A DNA stretch of 64,000 nt from Tubulanus polymorphus. Taxonomy: Eukaryota; Animalia; Nemertea. Both the position numbers and the translations under genes were made by a program. The stretch lies in assembly GCF_964204645.1 (NCBI RefSeq), contig NC_134029.1:12488850-12552849 (forward strand). The letters are read 5' to 3'. Below are positions 26,920-64,000 of this stretch, piece after piece. The notes under the pieces were generated by a model. The model was not told the DNA's origin, made no database searches, and was given only the letters and a program-made list of their open reading frames with translations. Position 1 is the first letter of the stretch. Every line of letters begins with the position of its first letter.

Positions 26920-26963
26920 ATTCTAACGTGTTAATCAAATTTTAATAAAAATATGTATTATAA

Positions 26964-27317
26964 ATGGAGAGTAAACAAACACACAGTGAGAACAACAAAT
27001 TATTTCTAGATAGAATTAAAGATATAACAAATGTAAAATCTGTAAATTATAAATTCAAAAAGTTAACAGAATTAACAATCCATAAGAAATATCTAATTAC
27101 AAATATTGATACAGTTACTAATAACTATGGAGATAAATTAGTTATACACTTAGAATATGAAGGATTAAAAGGAAATACACATAAATTCAGAACATATTTA
27201 CCGGATAGATTTCATAGATTATCAAGTGAAGATTTAGAAGAATTATGTTCTGGAGATTTCTATTTCGTATACAAAGGTAAGAATGAAAAAGGGCACCATG
27301 AAATAGATTTCGAATGA
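26964..27317 (+). CDS. Polinton hypothetical protein
   Basis: Intact ORF, TAAATG start, homolog at 4411..4737. Confidence 0.75.
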   Translation: MESKQTHSENNKLFLDRIKDITNVKSVNYKFKKLTELTIHKKYLITNIDTVTNNYGDKLVIHLEYEGLKGNTHKFRTYLPDRFHRLSSEDLEELCSGDFYFVYKGKNEKGHHEIDFE

Positions 27318-27334
27318 GAAAATATGTAAAATAA

Positions 27335-28097
27335 ATGGTAGAATTAAAAGAATACAGAATATTTGTTGATTCTAGAAGACTTACAAATTATAAATCTCAT
27401 AATTTACTAGTACAATTAGATAGAGAATTTAAGAATTGTGTAGATTTAAAATAAGTTAATATAAGTTTATGTAATTCTTTTTACAATATATCGAATAAAA
27501 CTATTGAACACAGAGCTTTTTTAATTTTTAATAAAAATAAAAATGAATGGGTCTATATATATTTAAAACCGGGGTTATATAATTTAGATACATTAGCACA
27601 AGAAATTAATAGAAAAGCCTGGCACAAATTAGGTAGTAGTTCTGGGTTTAGTATTAGATTTTTTAAAAGTGAGAGTTCTGATAGAATAAAGATAAGTTTG
27701 TCTAATGGTGAAAAACATAAATTTATGGTAAAAAAAACCTTTAGCTAAACTGTTAGGAATTCTTCCAGATAGATCTTTTAAAAATATTGATGCTGTTACA
27801 CCAAACTTAATACCTTACACACATTTTTATATTTATTGCAATTTAATCGATCCTACAAAAACATTCGAAGCAACTAAAGATATAACTTGTAATTCTGGTT
27901 TACTAAACATTTTACCATTGAAGAATGTTAAAGAATTTGGAACGCAAATAAATTATAATTTAACAGAATGTGATTTCAAACCATGCATTCCTCGTTTTAA
28001 TAATTTTTGATTAGAAATTAGAAATCACAATGGATACTTAATTGATTTAAATAATTTCCCTGTAATTTATGAATTAGTTATAAGATGTAGAGAGTAA
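27335..28097 (+). pseudogene. Minor capsid (penton-like) protein
   Basis: Homolog of 56493..57247 (LKPGLYNL, FYIYCNLID, IRNHNGYLIDLN); stop at ~27452, frameshift at ~27730, stop at ~28008. Confidence 0.75.
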
Positions 28098-28113
28098 TTT
28101 TTTCACTATATAA

Positions 28114-28455
28114 ATGAATATAACTGTTGGACCGAGTATATGTTTTGGGTTTGATTTTAAACATGGTAAAGAAATGAGAATTAAACTAAATGATGTAATT
28201 ACTGATATAAAAAGTAAATCATTTAACAATGCGTCAATGATTGATAAAGAAAATTATAATATAGAAAAAGTAATTGATTTAATTAAATCACCTTTAGAAT
28301 ATTATGAATTAAATGAAGATGGAATTATTGATGATATCAAAAACATATTATCCAAAATATATGATAATCATCAAAGTAGTAATGAAATAAATGTTGAATT
28401 AATCATCACTAAGATAACTAAATATTTTGATGATAGTAATTTTTTTGATAAATAA
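28114..28455 (+). CDS. Hypothetical protein (113 aa)
   Basis: TAAATG start; identical protein at 57264..57605. Confidence 0.7.
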   Translation: MNITVGPSICFGFDFKHGKEMRIKLNDVITDIKSKSFNNASMIDKENYNIEKVIDLIKSPLEYYELNEDGIIDDIKNILSKIYDNHQSSNEINVELIITKITKYFDDSNFFDK

Positions 28456-28677
28456 ATGAGGGATAATAAGTGGATAATAACTGGATTATATAATGGCGCA
28501 TTACTATCAGTTGGAACTGTTGGTTATTCAATGGTATTAAAAAAAGTATTTAAAATGGGAAGTGTTAATGTTGATAGATTTGATATAAATGATATTTTAA
28601 AATTAACATTAGCAGTTACTTTATCTAATTCAACTATTGATTATTTGGAAAAACGAAAATATATTCCTCCCATATAA
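28456..28677 (+). CDS. Small hydrophobic protein (73 aa)
   Basis: TAAATG start overlapping the previous stop; frameshifted copy at 57606..57826. Confidence 0.65.
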   Translation: MRDNKWIITGLYNGALLSVGTVGYSMVLKKVFKMGSVNVDRFDINDILKLTLAVTLSNSTIDYLEKRKYIPPI

Positions 28678-28701
28678 ATGCATAATTTTTTTGCTAAATA
28701 A

Positions 28702-29117
28702 ATGGCTTCTGCAATTATAACTATTATAGGATCGGCAATTGTTAACGCTTTAGCATTTACTGGTGGTGGATATTTATTTAAACATATTGAAAAAAAAGTT
28801 CATTAGGAGAACAAAGAAGACATAACTTAGCGTTAGAGAAATATAATAAAGCAGCAGAAGAATATAGAGAAAAAAGATAAAACTATATGGATTATATTAA
28901 CAAGGAATTATATGATCAGAAGATTTCACATAGAGATTTTCAATCAGTTGATGATGCAATGAGTTTAAATAACGCGGTAACAAATAAAGAAAAATTACAT
29001 CTATACAAACCTAAATTATCAGATTATTATACCCCGAGTAAAGAACAACAGAAATATGAAATAATATGGATTTTAGGTGGAACTGTTATATTTGTAGCAT
29101 ATAAATTTACTAATTAG
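28702..29117 (+). pseudogene. Small membrane/coiled-coil protein (MASAIITIIGSAIVNALAFTGGG...)
   Basis: TAAATG start; A-run frameshift at ~28790 and TAA at 28878; the 76-aa ORF is its C-terminal half. Confidence 0.65.
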
Positions 29118-29136
29118 TAATTTTTTTTCTAAATAA

Positions 29137-29571
29137 ATGGAAGATAAAGTTGATAGTATTGATATTATTCCTCATGATATAAATAAAACTAAATTAAAAA
29201 TATATTTAGAAAAACAAATATTAGAATTTGAAAGTGACTTGAAGATAAAAAAGAAAAAATATTTAAAAAGTAAAATTATATATTATCTTATTATTAGTGG
29301 TTCGGTTACAATTAGTTCTGTAATAACATTTCTAGCAATGTTCAGTCCATTAACACCTTTAGCTATATCAATTGGTGTATTAGGATTAAGTTCAAGTGTT
29401 TTAACTGGTATAAGTTCAAAATTAAATATAAAAAGTAATAAAGAAAAAATTAAAACTAATATAAAAGAAATTAATAAATTAAAGAATACACTAGACTATA
29501 TAATTAGTTTAAATGGCCATATAACAGTTGAAGAACAAGATAAATTATTAAAAGAATTAATAAATTATTAA
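29137..29571 (+). CDS. Two-TM membrane protein (144 aa)
   Basis: Two hydrophobic segments; identical protein at 58288..58722. Confidence 0.7.
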   Translation: MEDKVDSIDIIPHDINKTKLKIYLEKQILEFESDLKIKKKKYLKSKIIYYLIISGSVTISSVITFLAMFSPLTPLAISIGVLGLSSSVLTGISSKLNIKSNKEKIKTNIKEINKLKNTLDYIISLNGHITVEEQDKLLKELINY

Positions 29572-29587
29572 TTTTTTTATTATATAA

Positions 29588-30780
29588 ATGGTAGATAGTT
29601 TTCCAAAAGCTTTCCAATATAATAAATCAATTAAGTATAATATTCCAGCAATAGATTTTAATAAAGATATTACATATAGAAATGAAGTTTTAGATTCATT
29701 AACTAATTTAGAAATTTATGTTACTGAAACTAATAATTTTAATGCAAAGATGGAAAATATATTTCATGTATATTTAATTAATTTTAAAAAATTGGAAGAT
29801 GAAAAACAATGGTTATTAAAATCTAATATGAAGTATTGGCAGAAGCAATTAAATTTTGCTGTTTATTGCGCAACAACAGGATGTGGAATAAGTTGGAATG
29901 ATCATTTAAATAAACCAAGTTTACCATTGATGTTATCACTTTTTAGATTTCATACTTATTTTCAAATAAAATTAATATTAGATGAATTAGAATGTCCTTT
30001 ACTAAAAAAAGGACTTCTTAAATTAACTGATGATGAATTAAAACAATTTCCTGAAAAAGCACGTAGAGAAATTAAAGGTATGCAAGAATCAGCTGGTGAA
30101 ATTGCTAATATTAAGATAAGATTTTCTAAAATAACCATGTTAGAAAAAGAATTAACTAATGCAAATGAAGAATTAAAACAATTAGAATTAAATAGAGATC
30201 TTCAATTAATCGAGGAAGCTGATTATGAAAGCAGAAAGTTAGCTTTAGAAAAAGAAATAGATGATTTAGAATATAATATAGAATTACAGAAAGAAGAAAG
30301 AGATACATTATTAAAATCATATGATCTTAATCATATTAAAAAATTAAAAGTTATTTTGAGTTATTAAAGTTATTAAAAGATTTGTTGATAAAACCAGATT
30401 CTAAAATATCATTAAAAGATAGAATAAAATTATTATTTAAATTAGAAGGAATAACAATTCTTTCAATTCTAACAGCTGTAACTATGTTATTTACAACAAT
30501 TGGTTTAGCAATATCAAATGCCTTAAAATCTACTCGTACTCCCAATAAACCAGATAAACCCCCAGGTAATAATTCTATACAAGATAAAGTTAAGGATGGT
30601 TTAAAGAAATTAGCAAAATATTTATGGGAACTATCTAAAAAATCTGCTGCAGCTTTACCAGGAATTATTGCATCAATTGTTGGTTTTATATTGAAATCTG
30701 CAGGAAACATTATTAACTTTGCTGCTGAACATATTATTTTATTTTTAATTACAGTTGTAAGTGCTATTATTTTTGGGTAA
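29588..30780 (+). pseudogene. Deletion-derived fusion of two conserved Polinton genes
   Basis: Matches 58739-59150 up to ELECPL, then jumps to sequence homologous to ~60760-61588; frameshift near 30360. Confidence 0.75.
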
Positions 30781-30850
30781 GTAAATATGATATCAAAAAA
30801 TATCAAGTTACCATGATAAAAAATAAATAATTAATTTTTTAGTTAAATAA

Positions 30851-32101
30851 ATGAGTGGGAGTTATATAAGTCCTTCTAAGATTTCTAGAATATCTGATGC
30901 TATTAAAGCAGAAAGATCACATCATATAATTACTCATAACCCTTCAAATATTAATCCTGATGAAACTTTATATGTTAGAATCCCTCGATTAACACAAAAT
31001 ACTTTTTACGTTCCAAATAGTATTTATTTATCAGCCGATATAAAAGTAATCGGTAATAATAATAATTATGTTGTTGATAATGTTGGAAGATATTTGATTG
31101 AAAAATTAACTATAAAGATTGGTCCAGAAACAGTTTTCTCATTAGATGATTATAATTTATTTATGCATTATAAAGATTTATGGTTAACTAAAGAAAATAG
31201 AAATAATATGATATTTCAAGGAATCCAATCAGAAAACCAAAATAAATTAAGATCAGAAGCTAATAGCGCAATATCAACTAATGCTGTAGATAATTTGATT
31301 AAAAAGATTTATGGAAGCAAATATAAAATTCCATTAGACTTTGAATTGATAAATAACAACGCACCTTTATATAAATATGTAATTCAAGAAGATATTATAT
31401 TTGAGATAACATTTGCTCCTGTTAATGAAATTGTAATATCTAGCGTTGTTAAAGATATGGGTTATAAATTACCGAATATATGTTTAGAATATGATACAGT
31501 AACTGATGAAAATATTTCAAGTATAATTCAAACTCAATACAATCAAGGACTTTCATTATTATATGATTATATTGATAAATTTAAAACCGTAACTATTAAT
31601 GCAAATGATGAAATAATTAATGAGAATATTAACTTCCCAAGAAGATCTATTAAAGGTATATTAATATTTTTTACCATTGCAACATATACTAATGGCGCAA
31701 TAAATGTTGATAATTATTATAATCCTGAAATAACAAAAGTAGAAATAACTATCGAAGGAATAGCAAATAAAATATTTTGTCAAGGAATGAGAATGATTGA
31801 TCAGTGGCCAGAAATTAGAAAACATTTTATGAATGAAAAAGTAAAATCATCTGAAAATTGTAACATTAATCAAATTGATTATTATACCGGTAATAAATAT
31901 GCATTATGGTTAGATTTTAGAACAACAGAGGATAATTCATTACATGGTTCTGGAAAAAAACTACAGAACACTAAAGATGGAATACAATTATTCATGACAA
32001 AGAATAAAGGAATCAAAAAAAATTTTAAAATGCACATTTATATTATATCTGACGCGCAATTAAATATTGTAAATTCACAATTAGATAGTGTTATGTATTA
32101 A
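30851..32101 (+). CDS. Major capsid protein (double jelly-roll), inferred
   Basis: 416-aa beta-rich ORF of MCP size in a Polinton; motifs THNPSNI, NICLEYD, YALWLDFRT.EDN.LHGSG recognised from invertebrate Polinton MCPs. Confidence 0.8.
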   Translation: MSGSYISPSKISRISDAIKAERSHHIITHNPSNINPDETLYVRIPRLTQNTFYVPNSIYLSADIKVIGNNNNYVVDNVGRYLIEKLTIKIGPETVFSLDDYNLFMHYKDLWLTKENRNNMIFQGIQSENQNKLRSEANSAISTNAVDNLIKKIYGSKYKIPLDFELINNNAPLYKYVIQEDIIFEITFAPVNEIVISSVVKDMGYKLPNICLEYDTVTDENISSIIQTQYNQGLSLLYDYIDKFKTVTINANDEIINENINFPRRSIKGILIFFTIATYTNGAINVDNYYNPEITKVEITIEGIANKIFCQGMRMIDQWPEIRKHFMNEKVKSSENCNINQIDYYTGNKYALWLDFRTTEDNSLHGSGKKLQNTKDGIQLFMTKNKGIKKNFKMHIYIISDAQLNIVNSQLDSVMY

Positions 32102-32133
32102 AATTTTAACTTTAATAAAAAATCTTATATTAA

Positions 32134-32925
32134 ATGGAAGGAGGTAAAGTATATAAACATATTCCATACATTGAAAAACATGAAAATAATGATGGTTTAT
32201 ATTATGTAATACCTTGTAATATAGCTTTGATATTTGATCCTATTTTCAAAATTTATAAAACTAAACTAATAGAAATCGATAATAATAAAAGTGGTGTTGT
32301 TGATAATTTAAGTAATGTAATTGATAATAATGTTTTACCTTCGACATCTGATAATGTTTTACCTTCTACATATAATAATGAAATAATATTAGATTATAGT
32401 GAAAATAGAAATTATTGTGATTATTGTAAAGGTGAATTTTCAAACGCTCCATCAAATTGGAATAAACATATGAATACAAAGGTACATATTACTAATGTAA
32501 TAGAACATGTTGGTTTAAGAGAATTTATAGAACACCCATTTAGATATGTTACAAAATTTGTTTCAAATAAAAAAGTAAATGGTCAAGAATTATATGAAGA
32601 TTTTTTATTAGCAACACCTAATAAAGATGAATTAGATTTAACTGATGCTAATAAAATATTAGGATCAAATATTGTAAATGAAATATTAGGAGCAAACACT
32701 AAAAAAGATGATAATGAAAATGGTGCCATACGGCACCCACATGGTGATATAGTTACAGATATTGATATTAAAGATTATGTGGACACACTTTTGGTGAAAG
32801 ATAAAGAAGAAACTTTTGATGATGCGGTAGAAAGGATGAATAAGTATAACAATAAAACAACTATTGATGATGATACGGTAGAGAGTTTGAATAAATTGTT
32901 AGGGTCTGATAGTGAAAGTGATTAA
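32134..32925 (+). CDS. Hypothetical protein with one C2H2 finger and acidic tail
   Basis: YCDYCKGEFSNAPSNWNKHMNTKVH; TAAATG start. Confidence 0.7.
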   Translation: MEGGKVYKHIPYIEKHENNDGLYYVIPCNIALIFDPIFKIYKTKLIEIDNNKSGVVDNLSNVIDNNVLPSTSDNVLPSTYNNEIILDYSENRNYCDYCKGEFSNAPSNWNKHMNTKVHITNVIEHVGLREFIEHPFRYVTKFVSNKKVNGQELYEDFLLATPNKDELDLTDANKILGSNIVNEILGANTKKDDNENGAIRHPHGDIVTDIDIKDYVDTLLVKDKEETFDDAVERMNKYNNKTTIDDDTVESLNKLLGSDSESD

Positions 32926-32954
32926 GATATTAATTATATTTAATTCAAATAATA

Positions 32955-33335
32955 ATATTAGTTGAAAATTGTATAAAATAATAGAAAATAAAAAGGGGTT
33001 TTTAAGTATTTAAGGTATTTAAGGTATCTAATACATATCTAATACATATCTAATACATATTATTTGAAAATACCTTAAATTATATTTCTTTTTTAAATTT
33101 ATGTTGAAACCTCAGTAATAATGAATAACCTTTATTATTTTCAAACTTATTCATATATTAGTTGCAATAATAAAAAATAAATTGGTTGAAAATTGTATAA
33201 ATAATATTTATTTTAAAAAAGGGGGTTTTAAGTATTTAAGGTATCTAATAGGGTATCAGGTATTAGGGTATCAGGTATTAGGGTATCAGGTATTGGGGTA
33301 TCTAATAGGGTATCTAATACATAGGTATATAAATA
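32955..33335. repeat. Intergenic duplicated block with short tandem repeats between convergent genes
   Basis: ttgaaaattgtataa...aaaaggggtttttaagtatttaaggtat occurs twice, followed by (atctaatacat)n and (gggtatcaggtatta)n. Confidence 0.8.
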
Positions 33336-33336
33336 G

Positions 33337-33949
33337 TTATTTTATACATTTATATTCATATGGAAATTGTAATCTCAGTAATAATTTTGAACCTTTATTA
33401 TTCTTTAATTTATTCATATATTCATCATATAATTCAGTAGGTATAATTTGATTTTCTTCCAATGATTGTTGCATAGATTTTCTATCTTTATTGTAGAATA
33501 AAACTAGAAATCTTATATTCTCCCTAAAGTCTTTAACAATTGAATTATATTTTTGATTTAAAACCCATGTTGTTATCCCAAAATGTCTTCCAGAGAAAGC
33601 TAAATAACATAACTCACTTTCTCTCACTTTTGAATCATGTAAATTTTGCGCAATCATCTAAAATGAATAATGTATTTGATCCTTTATAAGTATCAATTGC
33701 TATTTTTATACAATTATCTAAATTTTCTTTTACTGTTTTAGGATCTAATATAATAAACTTTTTTATCTTAACTATATCTCTATTATATGTTTTATTCATT
33801 TCATAAGTAGGACAGAATAATATTATATTATCAAAATGATTCTTATAAATAGTTTCTAGCAAGTCTAATATGAAATGTGCTTTACCACAGTTTGTTACTC
33901 CAGTAACTAACATATTATGCGGTTCAAATATAAATAAATCTTTATTCAT
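33337..33949 (-). pseudogene. A32/FtsK-like packaging ATPase (element B), one frameshift
   Basis: GVTNCGKA, LFILDDC, SGRHFGITTWVLNQKY; split near 33645. Confidence 0.92.
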
Positions 33950-35027
33950 TTATTCTTTTAATTTTACTAGATAAAATCCATTCATTAAATTTATCATCGT
34001 ATCCTTTATATTTCACCAAAGAATACTTTTTTCCTTTAAGAGTTTTTGTTTTCAATACTTTTTCTATTTTGTATTCTATTTCATCTGGATTTGGTACAAG
34101 TGATAATTCTTGTTCATAGAAATAACCTAATATTTCTTCATCTTTTAGATCTTCTAGTTTATAAACAAAAGGTTTAGTTAATATTATCTTTTTAATCTTA
34201 AATATTTCTTCAGTAAAATTAGGAGTATAACCTTTATAAAAGATTTTTCTATATTTAGATATTCTAACGTGTTGTCTTATTTTAAATTTAGGTTCGCCGA
34301 AATCATGTGTAACAAACGCTCCGTATAAATTATTCCAAACTATTTCCGAATTATCTTCTTTTCTAGCTTGTATAGGTTTCATATTTATAGAACTACGTTT
34401 AGAATTATTATAACCTTTCACTAAATCATCTAACACATCGATATATTTATATGTTTCATTAGCAGTAAAGTATTTCCACATTCTAGTTTCCAATGTTTTA
34501 TTAAATCTTTCTATAATAGATGCTTTTTTATCTGAATGTGTTGAAAAATAATCTACATCGTTATCAGATAATAGTTTTTTAAAATGTTTGGTATAAAATT
34601 CCTTACCTTCATCAAATTGTATCTTATCTGGAATAGCTTCTTTAAATATAGATTTAAAAGCATTTGTTACTTCTATACAAGTTTCATTTTTGATTGGAAT
34701 TGACCATGCGTATCTACTGAATATGTCTATAACATTCAGTATCCAGAAATATCCTTTGTTGTATTCTTCTAAGTTCTTCATATCAATTAAATCTGCTTGC
34801 CATTGTTGATCGATATATGAAACCATAACTTTTCTTGTTAAATAGGTTTTATCCATTTTCTTATGTATTTGATATGTGGGTTGGTTTTGTAACCATGATT
34901 TTAATTCACTATATTTTATATCACTATTATCAGATTTTATTTTATTCCATAATTCTGAAACGTTAGAATATGATACTTCACTTTCTGGGTTATAATATAA
35001 ATCTCTTAAATATTGTTCTTTTTTCAT
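33942..35027 (-). CDS. Retroviral-like integrase with chromodomain (open frame)
   Basis: QWQADLID, QFDEGKEF, IIERFNKTL; C-terminal LVKYKGYDDKFNEWI. Confidence 0.95.
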   Translation of the reverse strand: MKKEQYLRDLYYNPESEVSYSNVSELWNKIKSDNSDIKYSELKSWLQNQPTYQIHKKMDKTYLTRKVMVSYIDQQWQADLIDMKNLEEYNKGYFWILNVIDIFSRYAWSIPIKNETCIEVTNAFKSIFKEAIPDKIQFDEGKEFYTKHFKKLLSDNDVDYFSTHSDKKASIIERFNKTLETRMWKYFTANETYKYIDVLDDLVKGYNNSKRSSINMKPIQARKEDNSEIVWNNLYGAFVTHDFGEPKFKIRQHVRISKYRKIFYKGYTPNFTEEIFKIKKIILTKPFVYKLEDLKDEEILGYFYEQELSLVPNPDEIEYKIEKVLKTKTLKGKKYSLVKYKGYDDKFNEWILSSKIKRINE

Positions 35028-35033
35028 CTTATT

Positions 35034-35516
35034 TTAACCCATTAATAATAATTTAGATTTAGTTTCAATAGCTTTATGATTTGACTTATTTTCTGGTATA
35101 ATAGGTTTATTGTCTGTACACGGATAACTAAGTTTCCGATCATCATTGGAATCATCTTTATCATCAGATTTGAATTTTGATTTATATATTACACCGGATA
35201 ATATAATAACTGTGATTAACCCAATTGTAATATATAATTTATAATTACTTCCAGCATTAGAAGAATCAGATGGATTATCATTCGAATCAATATCGGATAA
35301 TTTCTGTGATTCATTTATATCAGTTAATTTCTTTTTCTTATCTTTTTTTAATTCTGAAGATCTTTTACCTAATTCTCTTGCCCATTTAATTTGTTTCTCT
35401 ATATCAGTTAATTTCTTTTTCTTAGCTTTTTTTAATTCTGAAGATCTTTTACCTAATTCTCTTGCCCATTTAATTTGTTTCTCGGATCTAGCCTTTTTCT
35501 TAACTCCATCACTCAT
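35034..35516 (-). CDS. Basic single-TM protein with internal 27-aa duplication
   Basis: EKQIKWARELGKRSSELKK twice; hydrophobic LYITIGLITVIILSGVIY. Confidence 0.7.
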   Translation of the reverse strand: MSDGVKKKARSEKQIKWARELGKRSSELKKAKKKKLTDIEKQIKWARELGKRSSELKKDKKKKLTDINESQKLSDIDSNDNPSDSSNAGSNYKLYITIGLITVIILSGVIYKSKFKSDDKDDSNDDRKLSYPCTDNKPIIPENKSNHKAIETKSKLLLMG

Positions 35517-36111
35517 TTATTTTAGTTAATTTTTGTTCTGATTCATTTTCTGTTTCACTGTTTGGTTGTAGTACATCTGTTTCGTTCTTACCTGATTTAT
35601 ATTCCATAGGCTTGATATTCGAAAATGTAATGACACCAGTAGAAATTAATGTCATAACCGATCCTAATTGGAATGAAGCATAACCAACCCATTTTTGTAA
35701 TTCAGTCATAACTAAGTAGTCATTTTTCAAATCACTATATAATTTATTTTCGTCATCAATTGGTATTAACTGGTTACATAACTTAGAGTAACATTTGACA
35801 ATACTATCTGAAATAGAATCATTTATTCGAGCCAATCTAGCTTCTTCATAAATCTTAAAATATTTTATTACTTTATCGGGTTTCATAGAGTCTAGTTCTT
35901 GAAAAGTAATGATTCTATTTAAAAACTCATTAGTTTTTCCACCGGCAATCAATAGTTCTATATGGTGCTTACAATATAAATAGTATTCATAATCTATATT
36001 GTTATTAACTTGAATAGAATTAGAAACAACTGTATCTTTATTATCACTAATACCCAAATCATCTAATGTCTTTTCAATATCAATACTATTCTTATTAGAT
36101 TTCTTTGACAT
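35509..36111 (-). CDS. Polinton hypothetical protein
   Basis: Homolog in A (4913..5803); TAAATG start. Confidence 0.75.
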   Translation of the reverse strand: MSKKSNKNSIDIEKTLDDLGISDNKDTVVSNSIQVNNNIDYEYYLYCKHHIELLIAGGKTNEFLNRIITFQELDSMKPDKVIKYFKIYEEARLARINDSISDSIVKCYSKLCNQLIPIDDENKLYSDLKNDYLVMTELQKWVGYASFQLGSVMTLISTGVITFSNIKPMEYKSGKNETDVLQPNSETENESEQKLTKINE

Positions 36112-36360
36112 TTATATTAGAGAAAAAAAGCAAAAAAAATATTATAAATATTCTTCAAATGATACTAGATAGTTAAAGTTAAAGAACTCTAGTATTGACT
36201 ACTGATACAAGCTAATTGAGTTTAAAGAATTTCTATTTGAATCTATTCAAAATATAAAGTTTTCTCTTTTTGAAAAGAAAGTATTAAAAATCTAATAGAA
36301 TTCACTAGCTAGTTGAAGTTATTGTTTTTTAAATACTTTTTATTTAAATTAGGATTTAGA

Positions 36361-37240: not shown

Positions 37241-37246
37241 AAGCGT

Positions 37247-37897: not shown

Positions 37898-37974
37898 TTA
37901 TTATATGTATTTTTTACTAAATTGGTTAATATTTTAGAATCCTCTTCCATTTCTTCGACCAACGTCATCCTTTT

Positions 37975-39683: not shown

Positions 39684-39721
<38 letters not shown>

Positions 39722-41140: not shown

Positions 41141-41146
41141 AAAAAG

Positions 41147-48426: not shown

Positions 48427-48459
<33 letters not shown>

Positions 48460-53000: not shown

Positions 53001-55104
53001 CAGAACATTTAACTGTAGATGATAGTTATTTAAGTGAATACCAGAAGAAAAGAAAACCGAAAGATCATGTTTTTACAGAAAAATTAATACTTACTCAAAA
53101 TAATAAATACAATTATATTGTTCATTATAGAATGTTAAAATTTTATCTAAAACAAGGAATGAAATTAAAGAAAGTACATAGATATATTGAATTTAATCAA
53201 TCGAAGTGGTTAGAAAAATATATAGATTTCAATACTCAACAGAGAACCATATCAACAACAGATTTTGAAAAAGATTTCTTCAAATTAATGAATAATAGTT
53301 TTTATGGTAAAACATGTGAAAATATTAGAAATAGAAATGATATTGAATTAGTAAATAATTCTGAACGACTAAGACATTTACAATCAAGTCCTAGACATTT
53401 AGGAAATAAAAGATTTGAAGATTATTCAACAGCAGTTAAATTAAAAAGAACGTCAATGAAATTTAATAAACCTATATTCATTGGTTCAACTGTTTTAGAA
53501 GTATCAAAATTATTAATGTATGATTTTTATTATGTTTTACAACCACTTTTTGGGGAAAAGCATATTGAAATATTATATTTTGATTCTGTAACAGCTAACA
53601 CCCCAATATCATTAAAATGTAATGATAAAATATTGATAAGAAGAATTTCAGAAATAATTCCAAAACAAAATGAATGTTATATTTCATATGGTGAAAAAGA
53701 ATTAATACAAATGAATGGATTAATGGATGTTTGGACAAGAAATGGATGGAAAAAATCAAAGAATGTTATTAGACATAAAACAAATAAGAAAATCTATAGA
53801 GTTGGAACTAAATTAGGATTTGTAGATGTTACAGAAGATCATAGTTTAATTAAACGAAATGGCGATGAAATAAAACCAATTGATATAAAAATTGGAGATG
53901 AATTATTACATAAAAGATTTTTCCAAAGAATGAATCATATGTCATTTGATGAAATTATTGATAATATTTATGATATAGAACCCGAAACATTAGAAGTAAA
54001 AGAATATTTTATCAAAGGATTTTTCATGGGTGATGGTTCAGCAGGTGTGTATAATTATGTTTGGGGTAATAAATATTGTTGGTATTTATGCAATCAAGAC
54101 TTGAAATTATTAGAAAGAATTAAGAAATTCTGTGAAGAAGTTTATTCACATAAAACATTTAGAATCATGGATGTTATGAAATCATCAGCAGTTTATAGAA
54201 TACTTGTAAATAATCCTAAAGATTTTGCTATAAAATATAATGATGAATTCTATATTCATGCAATAGTGAAAAGTAATACTTCAACTAAAGAAAAGATAGT
54301 ACCAGATTATGTATTAAATGCAAAAAATAATTTAAGAAAGTGGTTCTTCATTGGATTCTATGCCGCAGATGGCACTAAAAAATTTACAAAGGATAAAAAG
54401 ATAACCTTTGCACAAAAAGGAAAAGTTGCTATATCAGGATTAAATATATTATGCAGTTCATTAGGATTTAATATGAATATAGAATTAATTAAATCTAAAC
54501 CAAATTGTTTTAATTTAAGGCATGTAGAAAAAGAATTAACAGAAGAAGTTAAAGATTTATTTGAAATATATAACCCAACTGACTATGTTTATGATTTATC
54601 AACAGATGATGGAACATTCAATTCTGGGTTCCCATTAATCCAAAAAATACTGACAGTTACATACTAAAAATCAAGACAAATGACATAACAAAAGATTTAA
54701 AAACATTAAAACATCATTTTGATTTTAGCAATTATCCCAAAGATCATGAACTATTTAGCAATGATAATAAAAAGATTCCTGGTAAATTTAAAGATGAATT
54801 AGGGGGTGATGAAATGATTGAATTTGTTGGGATAAGAAGTAAAATGTATAGTTATAGAACAAAAGATCATGAAGCTAAAAAGTTAAAAGGAATAACAAAA
54901 CATGTGGTTGATAAACATATAGAATTTCAAGATTATATAAAGTGTTTATATAAATCAATTGTAATAATACATAAAATGAATTGTTTAAGATCAGAAGATC
55001 ACGAGATGTACATTAATGAAGTTGAAAAAACTAGTTAGAATCCATTTGATGATAAAAGGCATATTTTAGATGATGGTATAAAAACATTACCTTATGGCCA
55101 TTAA
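50044..55104 (+). pseudogene. pPolB of C, intein-containing, with several stops and frameshifts
   Basis: ORFs 50044, 50319, 50792, 51164 and 54814 align in order to the pol of B; all Exo and Pol motifs present. Confidence 0.93.
53585..54648 (+). mobile_element. Intein with LAGLIDADG homing endonuclease (~355 aa)
   Basis: YFD|SVTANTPI (block A), VDVTEDHSLI (B), FIKGFFMGDGS (C), FFIGFYAADG (E), YVYDLST (F), ...KN|TDSY (G, after restoring one A at 54642-54647); absent from B. Confidence 0.93.
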
Positions 55105-56425
55105 AACATAAAATCAATATCATCAAACTCGAAATCACTATTTGTTTCTTCTTTTTCATTTAATTGTTCTTGTATAATTTGTTTAGGTTCTTCCATTTCA
55201 ATTTTCTCATTTAAATAAAGTTCTATCTTGTACCACATTTCATCTCGCTCCCTTTGTTTCTTTTTGTTCGTTAATTCATCAAATGGAATTATAATATCGA
55301 TGTTCAAATAATTTACAATCTTATTTAAAAAGAATTCATAATTAATTGAATCTGTTATTCTATTTTCCAAATGATACATTAATATTTGTTTGAATATTTT
55401 TTTTATATTTTCCATATCTTCTTCTGTTAATTTAGGTTTTTCATAATAATCGTTAAATAATAAATATAAATACATTTTCTTTTGTTTTGTGTTAAATGTT
55501 GATGGAATAATTGTTTTTATAATATCTTGTTTAGTTATTTCACCATTTTTATTTTCTATCATTTTCATTTTTTCAAGCCATTGCATATATTCTGGTGTAT
55601 GATCTTCCGTAGAAAATACCTTAAAAATTTCATCTAGATAATTTAATTTTGGATCTATAAGAATATTTCTAGTTTTTTTATCACCCCATAAATTCTTTTG
55701 CCATCCACATTCATTACAAAATAACACAGTACCTTCTTGTCTTAAGGTCGCATAATAACATTGTGGGCATTTTTGTTTATAATTTATTGGTAATAGATCT
55801 TCATTAAGCTCCTGGTATTTTCTTACGTTTTCTTTATGTTTTATTGTTCTATTATGTAGATTTGAATTACTTGTTGTAATAATCAATTTACAATATTTAC
55901 AATAATATGTTTTTCTTGTTAATTCATTATATTGTTTTCTAACTTTTCAACTGTTTCTTTATTATCTGGTAACGTTTTCTCATATTTTATTTTTTCTAAT
56001 ATTTTATTTTTTCTTTCATTGAATTCCGCTTCAAATTTATTAGAAATTTTATCTATATGTATTTTACGAAATTGATGATTCTCCCAAGCTTCTATATTTT
56101 CAGGGTTATATTTTATTCGACAAGGCTCACAGAAATGATCTTTTATATTATCCTTGTCATAGAATAAGAAAGGTCTTTTCCAAATAATTTCAGGTTCAAC
56201 TTCAGAATTACTATTACTTTCATTACTATCAACATTAGCCGTTGCGCCATTAATTTTACACTTCTCTGAATGTTTTTTAACATAATTTCTTGAGAATAAT
56301 TTATCACATTTTGGGCAGTTTGTTTTAGGGGGTTTATAATTTTCATCATGTTTTTTCATATGTCGAGCCATATTACTTTTTCTTAGAAGTTCACCACAAA
56401 TTTCGCATGGTATCTTCTCATCCAT
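55101..56425 (-). pseudogene. Multi-Zn-finger protein with VLTF3-like C-terminal domain, one frameshift
   Basis: Adding one A near 55937 joins the 168- and 261-aa ORFs through LEKQYNELTRKTYYCKYC. CPQC...CNECG plus INYEFFLNKI...L...KKQRERDEMWYKI recalls poxvirus/NCLDV late transcription factor 3. Confidence 0.6.
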
Positions 56426-56492
56426 TTATTTTGGAAAAATTTTATTAAAATTAATTTTTAGTGATGAGCGTTAATTTTTTATGTTATAAATA

Positions 56493-57247
56493 ATGGTAGA
56501 ATTAAAAGAATATAGAATATTTGTTGATTCTAGAAAACTTACAAATTATAAAACACATAATTTATTAGTTCAATTAGATAGAGAATTCAAGAATTGTGTT
56601 GATTTAAAATTAGTTAATATAAGTTTATGTAATTCTTTTTACAATATATCGGATAAAAGTTTTGATCATAGATTGTTTATGATTCATGATAGAAATATGG
56701 ATAAATGGTATCATCTATTTCTAAGACCAGGATTATATAATTTAGAAACATTATCTCAAGAAATTAATAAAAGAGCTCAGTTAAAAGTGGGTGAATCTGT
56801 TGGGTTTAACATTAAATTTAATAAAATTGATAGTACTAATAAAATAAGAATAAAGTTAACTAATGAACAATATAAATTCATAGTAAGAAAACCATTAGCT
56901 AAAATGCTAGGAGTTAATCCAAATAAAGTTTATTCAAATGTTGATACTACACCAAATATAATACCTTTTACGTACTTCTATATTTATTGTAATTTAATTG
57001 ATCCTACAAAAACATTCGAAGCAACTAAAGATACAATTTGTAATTCTGGTTTATTAAATATTTTACCATTAAAAATGTCAAACAATTTGGAACTCAAATA
57101 AATTATAATTTAACAGAATGTGATTTTAAACCTTGCATTCCACATTTCAATAATTTCAAATTAGAAATAAGAAATCATAATGGTTATTTAATTGATTTAA
57201 ATAACTTTCCTGTGATATATGAATTAGTTATAAGATGTAGAGAGTAA
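56493..57247 (+). pseudogene. Minor capsid (penton-like) protein, frameshift near 57075
   Basis: IFVDSR, NSFYNI, LRPGLYNLETLSQEIN, YFYIYCNLID, LLNILPL, then IRNHNGYLIDLNNFP in a shifted frame. Confidence 0.75.
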
Positions 57248-57263
57248 TTTTTTCATTATATAA

Positions 57264-57605
57264 ATGAATATAACTGTTGGACCGAGTATATGTTTTGGGT
57301 TTGATTTTAAACATGGTAAAGAAATGAGAATTAAACTAAATGATGTAATTACTGATATAAAAAGTAAATCATTTAACAATGCGTCAATGATTGATAAAGA
57401 AAATTATAATATAGAAAAAGTAATTGATTTAATTAAATCACCTTTAGAATATTATGAATTAAATGAAGATGGAATTATTGATGATATCAAAAACATATTA
57501 TCCAAAATATATGATAATCATCAAAGTAGTAATGAAATAAATGTTGAATTAATCATCACTAAGATAACTAAATATTTTGATGATAGTAATTTTTTTGATA
57601 AATAA
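57264..57605 (+). CDS. Hypothetical protein (113 aa)
   Basis: Identical to 28114..28455. Confidence 0.7.
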   Translation: MNITVGPSICFGFDFKHGKEMRIKLNDVITDIKSKSFNNASMIDKENYNIEKVIDLIKSPLEYYELNEDGIIDDIKNILSKIYDNHQSSNEINVELIITKITKYFDDSNFFDK

Positions 57606-57826
57606 ATGAGGGATAATAAGTGGATAATAACTGGATTATATAATGGCGCATTACTATCAGTTGGAACTGTTGGTTATTCAATGGTATTAAAAAAGTATTT
57701 AAAATGGGAAGTGTTAATGTTGATAGATTTGATATAAATGATATTTTAAAATTAACATTAGCAGTTACTTTATCTAATTCAACTATTGATTATTTGGAAA
57801 AACGAAAATATATTCCTCCCATATAA
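57606..57826 (+). pseudogene. Small hydrophobic protein, A-run frameshift
   Basis: Matches 28456..28677 except A6 versus A7 at ~57689. Confidence 0.6.
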
Positions 57827-57850
57827 ATGCATAATTTTTTTGCTAAATAA

Positions 57851-58268
57851 ATGGCTTCTGCAATTATAACTATTATAGGATCGGCAATTGTTAACGCTTT
57901 AGCATTTACTGGTGGTGGATATTTATTTAAACATATTGGAAAAAAAAAGTTCATTAGGAGAACAAAGAAGACATAACTTAGCGTTAGAGAAATATAATAA
58001 AGCAGCAGAAGAATATAGAGAAAAAAGATAAAACTATATGGATTATATTAACAAGGAATTATATGATCAGAAGATTTCACATAGAGATTTTCAATCAGTT
58101 GATGATGCAATGAGTTTAAATAACGCGGTAACAAATAAAGAAAAATTACATCTATACAAACCTAAATTATCAGATTATTATACCCCGAGTAAAGAACAAC
58201 AGAAATATGAAATAATATGGATTTTAGGTGGAACTGTTATATTTGTAGCATATAAATTTACTAATTAG
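57851..58268 (+). pseudogene. Small membrane/coiled-coil protein
   Basis: Copy of 28702..29117 with the same TAA (58029). Confidence 0.65.
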
Positions 58269-58287
58269 TAATTTTTTTTCTAAATAA

Positions 58288-58722
58288 ATGGAAGATAAAG
58301 TTGATAGTATTGATATTATTCCTCATGATATAAATAAAACTAAATTAAAAATATATTTAGAAAAACAAATATTAGAATTTGAAAGTGACTTGAAGATAAA
58401 AAAGAAAAAATATTTAAAAAGTAAAATTATATATTATCTTATTATTAGTGGTTCGGTTACAATTAGTTCTGTAATAACATTTCTAGCAATGTTCAGTCCA
58501 TTAACACCTTTAGCTATATCAATTGGTGTATTAGGATTAAGTTCAAGTGTTTTAACTGGTATAAGTTCAAAATTAAATATAAAAAGTAATAAAGAAAAAA
58601 TTAAAACTAATATAAAAGAAATTAATAAATTAAAGAATACACTAGACTATATAATAAGTTTAAATGGCCATATAACAGTTGAAGAACAAGATAAATTATT
58701 AAAAGAATTAATAAATTATTAA
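58288..58722 (+). CDS. Two-TM membrane protein (144 aa)
   Basis: Identical to 29137..29571. Confidence 0.7.
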   Translation: MEDKVDSIDIIPHDINKTKLKIYLEKQILEFESDLKIKKKKYLKSKIIYYLIISGSVTISSVITFLAMFSPLTPLAISIGVLGLSSSVLTGISSKLNIKSNKEKIKTNIKEINKLKNTLDYIISLNGHITVEEQDKLLKELINY

Positions 58723-58738
58723 TTTTTTTATTATATAA

Positions 58739-60125
58739 ATGGTAGATAGTTTTCCAAAAGCTTTCCAATATAATAAATCAATTAAATATAATATTCCAGC
58801 AATAGATTTTAATAAAGATATTACATATAGAAATGAAGTTTTAGATTCATTAACTAATTTAGAAATTTATGTTACTGAAACTAATAATTTTAATGCAAAG
58901 ATGGAAAACATATTTCATGTCTATTCAATTAATTTTAAAAAATTGAAAGAAGAAAAAACAATGGTTATTAAAATCTAATATGAAGTATTGGCAGAACCAA
59001 TTAAATTTTGCTGTTTATTGTGCAACAACAGGTTGTGGAATTAGTTGGAATGATCATTTGAATAATTGTAAATATAAATTAATTCAAAGTTTATTTAGAT
59101 TTCATACTTATTTTCAAATAAGATTAATATTAAATGAATTAGAGACCCCTTTACCAGGATCTAGATATTTTAAAGAATTAGATAATAATATTAATTTATC
59201 AAAGTTTTATAAAACTTGTAATGAATTTAATATAGATATAAATAATTCTGATTTTAGAACAAAAATTGGAACAATAAGATCACTTCCTTGCCCTAAAAAG
59301 ATTGCAGAATATTGTGCACTTCCCATACCATCTAATAGCTTTTATAATATCTATAATAATAAATTAGGTTATGGTAAAATAGAAACAAAGGATTTAGAAA
59401 CATTAAATTTCAATAAATTACCGAAATTTTATGATAATTTAAAACAAGAAAACAATAATGGTTGGGTTTATTTCATTTTAGAAAATAATGAAGGTTTTAC
59501 AAAATCAGGTATACAAAGAATAAATCAATCTATTAGAACTTATTTGATATGTATTCTAGGATCACAGGTTGAAACAAGATCCCCAATAATTGGAAATTTA
59601 AATACATCATTTGATACACAGAACCAATTCAAAGTATTATTTGAAGATTCCATTCATAATGATAAAAATAGATCGATTCCAGAAAACATTGTAAGATATC
59701 AAAATTATTTAGATAAATCTCATGTAAGACTAAATTATTGTATAGGCCCTAATCTATTAATTATTTCTAATGATTTAGTACTAAAGATGGGAAACATAAT
59801 TGGTTACAATAATCTAATTAAAACTGCAACAATAAATAATTCATTTGGATTAAATGATATAAATAAAAAGATTATTACTGCTCCAAAATTAATGGAAGGC
59901 GAAAAAAATAAAAAACATATTCAATCAACAGAAACTAAAACTAAGAATATTAAATTAAATAATGATTCTAAACCGGATTATAATACATCAGAAAATATTA
60001 AAACTGATAATATTCAACATGAAATAATTAAAACTGATAATGATAATTAATCCCATGAAAATACTAAATTAGCTTTAACTTGTATAGGAATTGTTATAGG
60101 AGGAATATTATATTTTAAATTTTAA
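58739..60125 (+). pseudogene. Conserved Polinton protein (QLNFAVYCATTGCGIS) with C-terminal TM anchor
   Basis: 79- and 356-aa ORFs joined across an extra A at ~58955 (continuous in B); in-frame stop at 60048 precedes a hydrophobic tail. Confidence 0.7.
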
Positions 60126-60141
60126 TTTTTTTATTATATAA

Positions 60142-61588
60142 ATGGATGTAGAAGGTGGAGAAGATATTGGAATGGATAATTTTGATGAACCTGGCATAAC
60201 TGATGAACTACAACCTGATTTTGGTGAAACAAGTTTTAATGACGGTAATGAGCCAGAATATAATAATAATTTAAATATGCCTGATTATATTAAAAATGCA
60301 GAATCACAATTAAATCCTGAAAATTTAGACCCAGATTTCGATAATTTAAACAAAATACCTAAATTAGAACGTATAATTGAAAAATCTAAACTTAACATAA
60401 ATGATAAAGACGTTGGACCTTTTGCAGATCAATTAAAATTCTTAGATAATGGTAAATGTTATTATCGTTTGAAAGATGATTATTATATTGATATCTCTTA
60501 TAAAAAAGAAGAAAAAATAATAGCAAAATCAACTTTGCTTAAGTTATGTCCAAATAGAATTAAGAGAATAAGAAATAGTAATGAAATAGAAGATGTAACA
60601 CAAGAAGAAATTATTAAAAATGAAAGAGTATTTAAACAAAAAATTTATGAATTATTTGAAATAATCAAAAAGAAATCAGAAACAGAAACAACTTCTGAAC
60701 AGAATAAAACTTCCAAAACTAGTAAATTTAAATCAAATAAAGTTCCAATTGAAAAACTTTTACCGAATGGATTAATTGATGCAACAGATCAACAATTAGA
60801 AGATTTAAATAATATATTTTCCTGTTGAAGCAATTTGAGAAATTAAAATTATAAGACTTGCATCTGATAAAATTGCGCATGATAAAAGTATAAGAGATTT
60901 TAAAATTAAAACTTTAGAAAAAGAATTCACTGATAAAAATAAAGAAATAGAACAATTAAAGTCTGATTTAGATCATCAAGTAATTGATGAAATAGAATAT
61001 AGGCAAAAAGAATTACGTTTAGAAAAAGAAAGAGATGATTTAGAATATAACATCGAATTACAAAAAGAAGAAATTAAATTATTGTTAAAATCATATGATT
61101 ATAATATTGATAGATTAAAAGTTATTTTTAAAGATTTGTTGATTAAACCAAATTCTGAAATATCATTGAAAGATAGAATAAAGTTATTATTTAAATTAGA
61201 AGGAATAACAATTCTTTCAATTCTAACAGCTGTAACTATGTTATGTACAACAATTGGTTTAGCAATATCAAATGCTTTAAAATCTACTCCTACTCCAAAT
61301 AAACCGGATAAACCCCCAAATGATAATAATTCTATACAAGATAAAGTTAAAGATGGTTTAAAGAAATTAGCAAAATATTTATGGGAACTATCTAAAAAAT
61401 CTGCTGCAGCTTTACCAGGAATTATTGCATCAATTGTTGGTTTTATATTGAAATCTGCTGGGAATATTCTTAACTTTGCTGCTGAACATATTATTTTATT
61501 TTTAATTACAGTTGTAAGTGCTATTATTTTTGGGTTAGTGAATATGATATCAAAAAGATATCAAGAAAAAATAATAAAAAATAAATAA
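60142..61588 (+). pseudogene. Acidic/coiled-coil protein with C-terminal membrane helices
   Basis: 228- and 168-aa ORFs bridged by a disrupted coiled coil homologous to 30000-30780. Confidence 0.7.
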
Positions 61589-61608
61589 TTAATTTTTTTG
61601 TTAAATAA

Positions 61609-62808
61609 ATGAGTGGGAGTTATATCAATCCTTCGAAGAATCATAGAATATCTAATGCTATTAAAGCAGAAAGATCACATCATATAATTACTCATAACCC
61701 TTCTAATATTAATCCTGATGAAACTTTATATGTTAGAATTCCTAGATTAACACAAAATACTTTTTATGTTCCAAATAGTATTTATTTATCAGCTGATATA
61801 AAAGTAACTGGTCATGATAATAATTATGTTGTCGATAATGTTGGGAGATATTTGATTAAAAAATTAACTATAAAGATTGGTCCAGAAACAGTTTTCTCAT
61901 TAGATGATTATAATTTATTTATGCATTATAAAGATTTATGGTTAACTAAAGAAAATAGAAATAATATGATATTTAAAGGTATTCAATCGGAAAACCATAA
62001 TAAATTAAGATCAGGAGCTAATGACGCAATAGTAACTCGTGCCACAGATAATTTGATTAAAAATATTTATGGAAGCAAATATAAAATTCCATTAGACTTT
62101 GAATTGATAAATAATAATGCACCTTTATATAAATATGTAATTCAAGAAGATATTATATTTGAGATAACATTTGCTCCTGTAAATGAAATTGTATTATCCA
62201 GCGTTGTTAAAGATATGGGATATAAATTATCGAATATATGCTTAGAATATGATACAGTAACTAATGAAAATATTGCTAACACAATTCAAACTCAATACAA
62301 TCAAGGATTTTCATTATTATATGATTATATTGATAAATTTAAAACTGTAACTATTAATGCAAATGATGAAATAATTAATGAGAATATTAACTTCCCAAGA
62401 AGATCTATTAAAGGTATATTAATATTTTTTACCATTGCAACATATACAAATGGCGCAATAAATGTTGATAATTATTATAATCCTGAAATAACAAAGGTAG
62501 AAATAACTATCGAAGGAACAGCAAATAAAATATTTTGTCAAGGAATGAGAATAATAGATCAGTCAAATTGTAATATTAATCAAATTGATTATTATACCGG
62601 TAATAGATATGCATTATGGTTAGATTTTAGAACAACAGAGGATAATTCATTACATGGTTCTGGAAAAAAACTACAAAACACTAAAGATGGAATACAATTA
62701 TTCATGACAAGGAATAAAGGAATCAAAAATTTTAAAATGCACATTTATATTATATCTGACGCACAATTAAATATTGTAAATTCACAATTAGATAGTATTC
62801 AATATTAG
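61609..62808 (+). CDS. Major capsid protein of C, with in-frame deletion
   Basis: Highly similar to 30851..32101 but lacks ~16 aa (WPEIRKHFMNEKVKS...). Confidence 0.8.
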   Translation: MSGSYINPSKNHRISNAIKAERSHHIITHNPSNINPDETLYVRIPRLTQNTFYVPNSIYLSADIKVTGHDNNYVVDNVGRYLIKKLTIKIGPETVFSLDDYNLFMHYKDLWLTKENRNNMIFKGIQSENHNKLRSGANDAIVTRATDNLIKNIYGSKYKIPLDFELINNNAPLYKYVIQEDIIFEITFAPVNEIVLSSVVKDMGYKLSNICLEYDTVTNENIANTIQTQYNQGFSLLYDYIDKFKTVTINANDEIINENINFPRRSIKGILIFFTIATYTNGAINVDNYYNPEITKVEITIEGTANKIFCQGMRIIDQSNCNINQIDYYTGNRYALWLDFRTTEDNSLHGSGKKLQNTKDGIQLFMTRNKGIKNFKMHIYIISDAQLNIVNSQLDSIQY

Positions 62809-62838
62809 AAATATAAAGTTGAAATTAAGGATATATAA

Positions 62839-63844
62839 ATGGGTGGTTAAAAAACTCCTAATACTAAAGAACAATATTTAAGAAATTTATATTACAACCC
62901 TGAGAGTTCGGTTGCTTATTCCACTACCAAAAATATATGGCGTCAAGTAAAACAAGATAAATTAGATAAGATAATCTCACAAAATTTAGTTAAATATAAA
63001 GATATAAATGAATTTATGTTAGAACAACCAACATACACAACACATAAAAAAATTGTTAGAAAATATAAAACTCGTAAAAGTATGGTAAGTTATGTAGATC
63101 AACAGCTGTACAAACATCAAATGTTTTAAGAAAATTTCTTTCGGATGATAAACTAAAACCAGAAAAAATACAATTTGATGATGGAAAAGAGTTTGATAAT
63201 TCACTTGTTCATGAACTCTTAGATAATCATAATATTAAATATTTTTCAACAAAATCGGATAAAAAAGCAGCAGTTGTTGAACGATTTAATAGAACTTTAA
63301 GAACAAGAATGTGGAAATATTTTACAGCAAATAATACTTTTAAATGGATTGATGTTTTACCATAATTGATAGAAGGATATAATAATTCTTATCATTCTCC
63401 TATTGGAATGAAACCTATTGATGCTAGAAAACCTGAAAATGCTGAAATTGTTTGGAATAATTTATATGGAGCATTTCTTGTAGATGATTTTGGTGAACCT
63501 AAATTTAAAGTTGGTCAAAATGTTAGAATTTCTAAGTATAAAAAGATATTTGATAAAGGATACGATCGAAATTTTACTAGGGAAATATATAAAATAAAAA
63601 AGGTAATAACAACAAAACCATATGTCTATAAATTAGAAGATTTAGATGGTGAAGAAGTTGATGGCTATTTTTACGAAGAAGAATTAAGTTTAACTACTGA
63701 AAATCTAGAACAAGAATATAAAATTGAAAAAGTATTAAAAACAAAAACTATTAAAAGAAAAAAAAATATTCTTTAGTAAAATGGGTTGGATGGCCAGATA
63801 AATTTAATGAATGGATATTGTCAAGTAAAATTAAAAATATATAA
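62839..63844 (+). pseudogene. Integrase of C
   Basis: TAAATG start, stop at codon 4, ~124-bp deletion at ~63105 relative to A removing the first catalytic Asp, A-run frameshift at ~63760. Confidence 0.9.
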
Positions 63845-64000
63845 ATGAATAAGGAATTATTTATATTTGAACCTCATAATATGTTAATTTCTGGCGTAAC
63901 AAATTGTGGAAAAACTTATTTTATATTAAATTTATTAGAAACTGTTTATGAAAACTATTTTGATAATATAGTATTATTTTGTCCAACATATGAATTTAAT
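63845..64000 (+). CDS. Packaging ATPase of C, N-terminus
   Basis: MNKELFIFEPHNMLISGVTNCGKTYF; runs off the window. Confidence 0.9.
   Translation, partial: MNKELFIFEPHNMLISGVTNCGKTYFILNLLETVYENYFDNIVLFCPTYEFN

Follow-up and report, generated by a model that had tools for sequence, protein, structure and literature searches.

We examined 64,000 nucleotides of the genome of the nemertean Tubulanus polymorphus (NC_134029.1, positions 12,488,850 to 12,552,849; hereafter the window), a repeat-rich region of 38-39% GC holding three islands at 23.5-24.3% GC that are copies of a Maverick/Polinton (elements A, B and C; Table 1). Nearly all genes of these elements, whose AT content is 76%, start within the word TAAATG, and we found that this word belongs to a compact two-part signal, likely a promoter of poxvirus type. 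Element B is a complete Polinton, with terminal inverted repeats (TIRs), a 6-bp target-site duplication, a DNA polymerase B of the protein-primed type (pPolB), an rve integrase, a double jelly-roll (DJR) major capsid protein (MCP) and an A32 ATPase. The joint expected at its empty site (22668-38457) was supported by 638 reads of run X6, a set of 1,934 Mb of reads carrying the same species label and compared at 90% likeness. Depth of this run over the element family was ~300-800x in most bins, so that copies must be numerous, in the hundreds if the genome measures about 1 Gb. Element C is 74-93% identical to B, in blocks, and core genes are broken by frameshifts in all three copies. Compared with C, the left end of A carries an insertion of ~260 bp (4130-4390).

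Table 1. Features of the window, numbered from its first letter; T-run and A-class are the two upstream forms defined in the text.
Feature	Positions	Strand	Remarks
Repeats outside the elements			31-bp and 155-bp tandem arrays
Retroelement integrase remnant	672-1727		Outside the elements
Element A	4076-7600		Polinton remnant truncated by satellite; TAAATG at 4411, 5265, 5803, 6715
Element B	22675-38456		Complete Maverick/Polinton; GC 24%, flanks 38-39%; frameshifts in several genes
B terminal inverted repeats	22675-23019 / 38113-38456		Two arms
B target-site duplication	22669-22674	+	CACTTC, 6 bp, repeated at 38457-38462; target is a host repeat; duplication intact
B pPolB	22906-26919	+	Two frames, broken near 25600; TAAAATG start, A-class core
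B 117-aa gene	26964-27317	+	TAAATG, A-class core; no database match
B putative minor capsid gene	27335-28096	+	Broken; TAAATG; label inferred from position
B block of small conserved genes	28114-30780	+	Starts 28114, 28456, 28702, 29137, 29588, each T-run and TAAATG
B double jelly-roll MCP	30851-32101	+	T-run and TAAATG
B zinc-finger protein	32134-32925	+	A-class core and TAAATG
B A32-type packaging ATPase	33337-33949	-	Broken; Pox_A32 E 6e-6; TAAATG overlaps end of integrase gene
B rve integrase with chromodomain	33942-35027	-	rve E 4e-9; exception start TAAGATG
B two conserved genes of unknown function	35034-36111	-	Starts 35516, 36111, both TAAATG
B probable HNH nuclease	37247-37897	-	A-class core and TAAATG
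Element C	49960-64000		Polinton running past window end, 23.5% GC; terminus AGTAAT common to A
C pPolB	50044-55100	+	Broken; T-run and TAAATG; intein in YxDTD motif
C zinc-finger and VLTF3-like (TFIIB-fold) gene	55101-56425	-	Frameshift near 55920; A-class core and TAAATG
C capsid block	56493-62808	+	Putative minor capsid gene 56493; 57264, 57606, 57851, 58288, 58739, 60142; MCP 61609; T-run promoter forms
C broken integrase and ATPase start	62839-64000	+	Starts 62839, 63845, both TAAATG

The pPolB of B was 34-45% identical to Polinton-type pPolB loci, and the closest full-length relatives of the element polymerase carry PF03175. In Foldseek, the AlphaFold2 (AF2) model of the B MCP (pLDDT 86) had iridovirus and PBCV-1 MCPs as its top solved matches (E 2e-16), with mavirus MCP no higher than rank 43. 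A bivalve MCP is a relative at 38% identity; MCP and integrase queries retrieved no IMG/VR relatives, and the MCP had no match in the phage collection. The candidate minor capsid gene (27335/56493) matched DUF5901 only (E 3.6e-4) and nothing in a PDB search, and its C copy is 38% identical to an intact open reading frame (ORF) of L001, one of four relatives (L001-L004) considered below. The 117-aa gene of B is tentatively labelled SSB-like, the 29137 gene is SLATT-like (SLATT E 5e-5, short of the cut-off), and an atlas search with the 36111 gene gave no usable match. The sequence-only reading, made before any database search, had also named an HNH nuclease, a call that stands as a weak one (Pfam HNH E 0.098; E 0.0055 for the L003 homologue). 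No adenain-type protease was detected in the window or in L001-L004 by tblastn and a profile from eight protease domains of control loci, which a very divergent protease could escape. Family scans of the window ORFs turned up no RNA polymerase gene, with no search aimed at RNA polymerase subunits, and an Rfam scan of the window gave 0 matches.

Several structural details of B were also recorded. Its 29588-30780 gene appears to be a fusion, via an internal deletion, of what C and L001 have as two separate genes. In its right terminal repeat the promoter and opening codons of the pPolB gene occur a second time, producing an 83-aa ORF that continues into HNH-gene-like sequence (37975-38368). Non-coding stretches lie at 36150-37240, a possible foreign insertion with higher GC and reduced read depth, and at 32930-33330, where short tandem repeats of GGTATC type occur. 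The 31-bp satellite forms long arrays at 7640-19270 and 39770-42370, inside a larger dispersed host repeat that is also the insertion target of B.

The sequence-only reading had listed 26 TAAATG starts and four exceptions, all of which we found in place, and had called the motif near-universal. With two further starts at 57606 and 57851, TAAATG opens 28 of 32 curated starts. Of the remaining ATGs in the three elements, 77 of 1296 have it (Fisher p=1e-28), and of those whose upstream 30 nt are 85% AT or richer, 14 of 140 do (p=1e-17), making the signal stronger than had been described. In 14 of 17 gene families the majority of copies has it (p=5e-12). Three of the four exceptions retain an initiator-like word, namely TAAAATG at 22906 and 38226 and TAAAT-AATG, behind a correctly spaced T-run, at 56493. 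Same-strand spacers, which had been put at ~20-30 bp, measured 0-91 nt, mostly 16-44. The 32 starts were curated with the motif in view, and those at 27335, 28702, 50044, 62839, 5265, 57606 and 57851 open genes broken soon after, most of them accepted by eye on N-termini matching other copies or L001-L003. For that reason a blind count was added, taking the first ATG of non-overlapping ORFs of at least 100 aa. By this rule TAAATG stood at 17 of 29 ORFs in elements A-C, and the 12 misses comprised three real exceptions (22906, 35027, 56493), eight downstream pieces of broken or truncated genes and one antisense ORF.

Under the same rule, the relatives L001-L004, whose MCPs are 70-76% identical and whose gene order differs, had TAAATG at 27/32 ORFs, whereas three loci with 34-38% MCP identity had it at 0/9, 16 other pPolB loci from IMG/VR at 5/134, and L018, despite its low GC of 21.6%, at only 1/10. 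Given these counts, TAAATG is a lineage trait and neither a composition nor an ORF-rule artefact. An IMG/VR element of 38% GC (L010:719-8745) had TAAATG at 6/6 ORFs; as its pPolB is only 37% identical to that of the window, the motif may have arisen twice or predate the lineage of the window. A pPolB tree of 19 rows, built without the short C-terminal piece of C, was compatible with the window and L010 forming one clade or two. L010 encodes a protease domain fused to an rve-chromodomain integrase. Three Maverick-like IMG/VR loci (L016, L017, L019) form a clade with mostly TAAAAA-type words directly before the ATG, possibly another conserved initiator. In L001, a gene for a deoxynucleoside kinase (10340-10981; Pfam dNK E 2e-31) starts at a TAAATG of the T-run form, and Polinton MCP contigs filed in bacterial or archaeal metagenome-assembled genomes (L005, L006, L007) probably reflect binning contamination.

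In the 55 distinct upstream sequences of the window and L001-L003, conservation is also found between -19 and -12 from the ATG, in a zone nearly without G or C that is followed by a tolerant spacer. Among distinct TAAATG sites, positions -18..-12 lacked G and C at 20/24 starts and 5/68 non-starts, and a T lay 10 nt upstream of TAAAT at 17/24 starts and 21/68 non-starts. Two forms were distinguished in the three elements: a T-run form, TAATTTTT-N7-9-TAAAT, with all 16 of its matches at starts, and an A-class form, TT(A/T)A(A/G)TAA-N12/13-TAAA (AATAA core), with six of eight; since both patterns were derived from the starts themselves, what carries information is how rarely they occur anywhere else. 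The two forms often share a TAA at -19..-17, and the MCP has the T-run in 5/5 copies. We also asked whether the AATAAA of the A-class core might be the poly(A) signal for the gene before it, which is possible at some junctions and impossible at 22906, 38226 and 56425, where there is no same-strand upstream gene.

The base at -3 was T in 50 of the 55 distinct starts, opposite to the purine found at 101 of 134 ORFs of the other pPolB loci that served as controls. T at -3 is a poor animal start context unless it is absent from the mRNA. TAAATG genes also occur head to head, 19 nt apart in L003, 67 nt apart in the window and again in L010, and at 56493 TAAAT lies three bases before the ATG, with the T-run spacing kept to TAAAT and not to the ATG. 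Given the T at -3, the head-to-head pairs and the displaced TAAAT-AATG, we argue for TAAAT as a transcription initiator rather than a Kozak or stop-start signal. An explanation by translation (stop-start reinitiation or an A-rich start context) or by AT composition would fit the AT-rich elements and the starts at 28456, 57606, 6715 and, by homology, 63845, where the preceding gene ends with this TAA as its stop codon. However, that overlap concerns 4 of 28 starts in two gene families, genes that come first or are divergently oriented begin with the motif as well (4411, 50044, 56425, L003), and AT-matched ATGs fail to reproduce it. AT composition, Kozak context and stop-start coupling were rejected as the general cause, and this explanation is largely refuted, keeping at most a trace of probability. 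The promoter reading is well supported by the fixed-spacing upstream element, the T at -3, the head-to-head pairs, the conservation in relatives and the absence of the motif from AT-matched Polinton controls; the sequence feature itself is real, strong and conserved.

The anatomy of this signal matches two classes of poxvirus promoter. In vaccinia late promoters the start codon is overlapped by TAAAT(G) and a conserved T lies 10 nt upstream (PMC11980589), both of which the elements have. Vaccinia intermediate promoters have TAAA without the late-type T and are A-rich upstream (PMC11980589); they consist of an AT-rich core, then 12 bp of spacer, then TAAA, and the core viral polymerase reads them (PMC12917281). 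Core, 12-nt spacer and TAAA recur in the elements, and the vaccinia G8R strand printed in PMC12917281 reads AATAA-N12-TAAAATG, like 22906. At the DNA level, then, the elements possess what marks poxvirus post-replicative promoters, a TAAAT initiator over the start codon and an upstream element at fixed spacing. Both in vaccinia and in yeast linear plasmids, slippage at TAAAT adds a poly(A) leader at the 5' end (PMC6211774). Poxviruses and these plasmids encode their own RNA polymerase, whereas family scans of ORFs showed none in the elements.

Two genes of element C bear on the same question. Frames 56425-55919 and 55946-55101 are one gene in relatives (a single protein in P0165/P0166), the C-terminal part of which had only three sequence relatives. 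Neither Pfam, including Pox_VLTF3, nor NCBIfam matched it, and the fold search alone recognised it: the top BFVD match of its predicted model was cowpox VLTF3 (E 4e-7), two entomopoxviruses ranked 2 and 5, and 8 of 12 matches at E<=0.001 were named late transcription factor or VLTF3-like. Among solved structures the model matched TFIIB with a middling score (Z 7.7, rmsd 3.1, 98 residues, cyclin fold), and a zinc ribbon followed by a helical TFIIB-like domain is predicted, as in VLTF3. The earlier suggestion of a VLTF3-like gene is thus supported by modelled fold. The intein that had been proposed was also supported, at ~53580-54650 in the YxDTD motif of the C pPolB (TIGR01445 above cut-off; LAGLIDADG E 2e-5), and is absent from B. 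Among the best 120 of its 943 relatives, 115 lie in PF00136 polymerases and three in pPolBs, and the two with viral names belong to a mimivirus and a marseillevirus, which suggests past co-residence with large viruses. The same intein occurs in three other pPolBs (P0203, P0204, P0206), one in a 136-member cluster on long contigs.

We lean towards helper-dependent Polintons transcribed by a poxvirus-type polymerase, elements that would behave as integrated virophages. A poxvirus-type helper infecting the same cell would supply the RNA polymerase that reads the two-part TAAAT signal; given that the family scans showed no RNA polymerase gene in complete element B, an outside, viral polymerase would be needed. 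Transcription would start inside TAAAT, leaving the T at -3 out of the mRNA, and slippage would add a 5' poly(A) leader, as in vaccinia. T-run promoters may serve the late stage and AATAA-core promoters the intermediate stage that precedes it, and the VLTF3-like protein of C may plug into, or compete within, the late initiation complex of the helper. On co-infection, the helper's post-replicative machinery would transcribe the element, which would replicate by its own pPolB, package itself and reintegrate, and new copies would integrate after co-infection of cells reaching the germ line. The proposal of the sequence-only reading that a large-virus machinery transcribes these elements thus gains from promoter anatomy, the VLTF3 fold and the giant-virus-type intein; the viral polymerase itself, and with it helper dependence, is what we infer.

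A less probable account, though one to be taken seriously, is that TAAAT is a real initiator and the element autonomous, transcribed in the nucleus by host RNA polymerase II (Pol II), perhaps steered by its own TFIIB-like VLTF3 from some copies, into nearly leaderless mRNAs. Given the spacing of Pol II core promoters, the 19-nt head-to-head spacer of L003 has no room for two of them outside coding DNA, TATA-like words abut the ATG instead of lying 25-30 nt upstream of a start site, B has no VLTF3, and agreement with two distinct classes of poxvirus promoter would have to be coincidence. On the other hand, the VLTF3-like protein has a TFIIB cyclin fold (Z 7.7), the high copy number fits helper-free spread, and the protease-bearing L010, 6/6 at 38% GC, raises the possibility that the motif is a Polinton habit. 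Coral Polinton genes are transcribed, moreover, and in ordinary samples, with no helper reported in the text covered (PMC11131425).

That coral record is also one of several observations that weigh against transcription by a poxvirus-type helper. Two scans of IMG/VR with the promoter patterns retrieved 7 and 20 loci, each having two TAAATG starts at most, and no helper was found; a VLTF3 alignment search gave no IMG/VR locus. The high copy number (run X6) would need repeated helper infections reaching the germ line. Promoter class follows function loosely: the T-run is the majority form in 7/9 capsid-block and 2/7 DNA-handling families (p=0.13) and the A-class in 1/9 and 5/7 (p=0.035), with membership of the capsid block partly assigned by position, while the ATPase has neither pattern, and a strict split into late structural and intermediate replication genes is weakly supported by these sequences. 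The vaccinia intermediate core itself has no strict consensus (PMC12917281), and A-rich words stand beside the ATG in other Polinton loci too (TAAAATG in L005 and L006, ATAAAA-type in L016 and L019). The VLTF3-like model is middling (pLDDT 68), non-pox VLTF3 matches, including pandora-, mimi-, marseille- and asfarviruses, fall within ~100-fold in E-value, and complete element B has no such gene; VLTF3 is, furthermore, common across nucleocytoplasmic large DNA viruses and already known from some Polintons (PMC11131425). Finally, the intein points to mimivirus- or marseillevirus-type rather than poxvirus polymerases.

The last two of these would suit a helper from another family of large DNA viruses (e.g. 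asfar-, irido- or mimivirus-like), one in which TAAAT initiators are used by chance, and yeast linear plasmids show that TAAAN initiators also exist outside Poxviridae (PMC6211774). We consider such a helper improbable: mimivirus-type early promoters read AAAATTGA, the one giant-virus contig examined (L027) had TAAATG at 1/9 ORFs, and the poxvirus match spans both initiator and upstream element. The frameshifts in core genes of all three copies could also mean that an ancestor needed a poxvirus-type helper and that present copies are dead, or mobile without expressing these promoters. This seems very improbable, in that the target duplication of B is intact and the motif is retained across relatives with 70-76% identical MCPs and differing gene order, a retention that would need selection after divergence.

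If transcription by a poxvirus-type helper holds, these high-copy integrated animal Polintons could, more tentatively, be an endogenous virophage of an undiscovered poxvirus, wired to its intermediate and late stages and switched on by infection as a parasite or an inherited antiviral. An unknown poxvirus would then be predicted in the host, and the mavirus model of integrated virophages would extend from protists to animals. Virions of animal Mavericks/Polintons have not been seen (bioRxiv 10.64898/2026.06.19.733378), a silence that would be explained if some of them need a poxvirus-type helper for transcription. Promoter anatomy could predict which animal Polintons need which helper, and a start-context screen of animal Polintons would map lineages with the same wiring.

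Among known systems, the elements have most in common with Mavericks/Polintons (Polintoviricetes; 'adintoviruses', PMC8502044; groups in bioRxiv 10.64898/2026.06.19.733378), with which they share TIRs, the 6-bp duplication, pPolB, rve integrase, A32 ATPase, DJR MCP, a length of ~16 kb and no visible introns, as well as SLATT- and VLTF3-like accessory genes known from Maverick/Polinton-related elements. The missing introns, earlier counted as evidence for viral transcription, are uninformative, given that intact vertebrate Mavericks are likewise intronless (PMC8097293). Unlike known Mavericks/Polintons, the elements have near-universal poxvirus-type promoters, and the adenovirus-type maturation protease, a trait of most Group 1 Maverick-Polintons, was not detected in complete B and L001-L004. 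Lavidaviridae/Virophaviricetes, which are defined by a virophage-type MCP and a maturation protease, fit poorly, with no protease found and mavirus MCP low in the fold ranking. The word 'promoter' is absent from the available text of PMC8502044 and PMC11131425, TAAATG occurs in PMC4722103, a polinton paper, in a primer, and we found no report of poxvirus-type promoters in Polintons in the literature covered, which excluded supplements and subscription papers.

Entomopoxvirus-associated Polinton-like viruses (PLVs) came from insect occlusion bodies and all encode a protease (Barth et al. 2024, PMC11296320). Those described there lack an rve integrase or use a tyrosine recombinase, and the available text of that source contains no promoter analysis and 0 mentions of promoter, motif or TAAA. 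Here, by contrast, the copies are rve-integrated, and the evidence comes from the anatomy of their promoters. Integrated virophages and virophage-like PLVs (mavirus/EMALE with CroV, Gezel-14T with PgV, Tetraselmis PLVs) are likewise small integrated DJR viruses that have promoter motifs in common with a large helper and are reactivated by it. They differ in their protist hosts, Imitervirales helpers and other motifs, and their dependence is experimental, whereas that of the elements here is deduced. Helper-matched promoters are already known for mavirus, Sputnik and Gezel-14T (bioRxiv 10.1101/2025.10.09.676808, 10.1101/2022.07.28.501842), as are entomopoxvirus-associated PLVs, and what appears to be new here is promoter anatomy of poxvirus type in Polintons.

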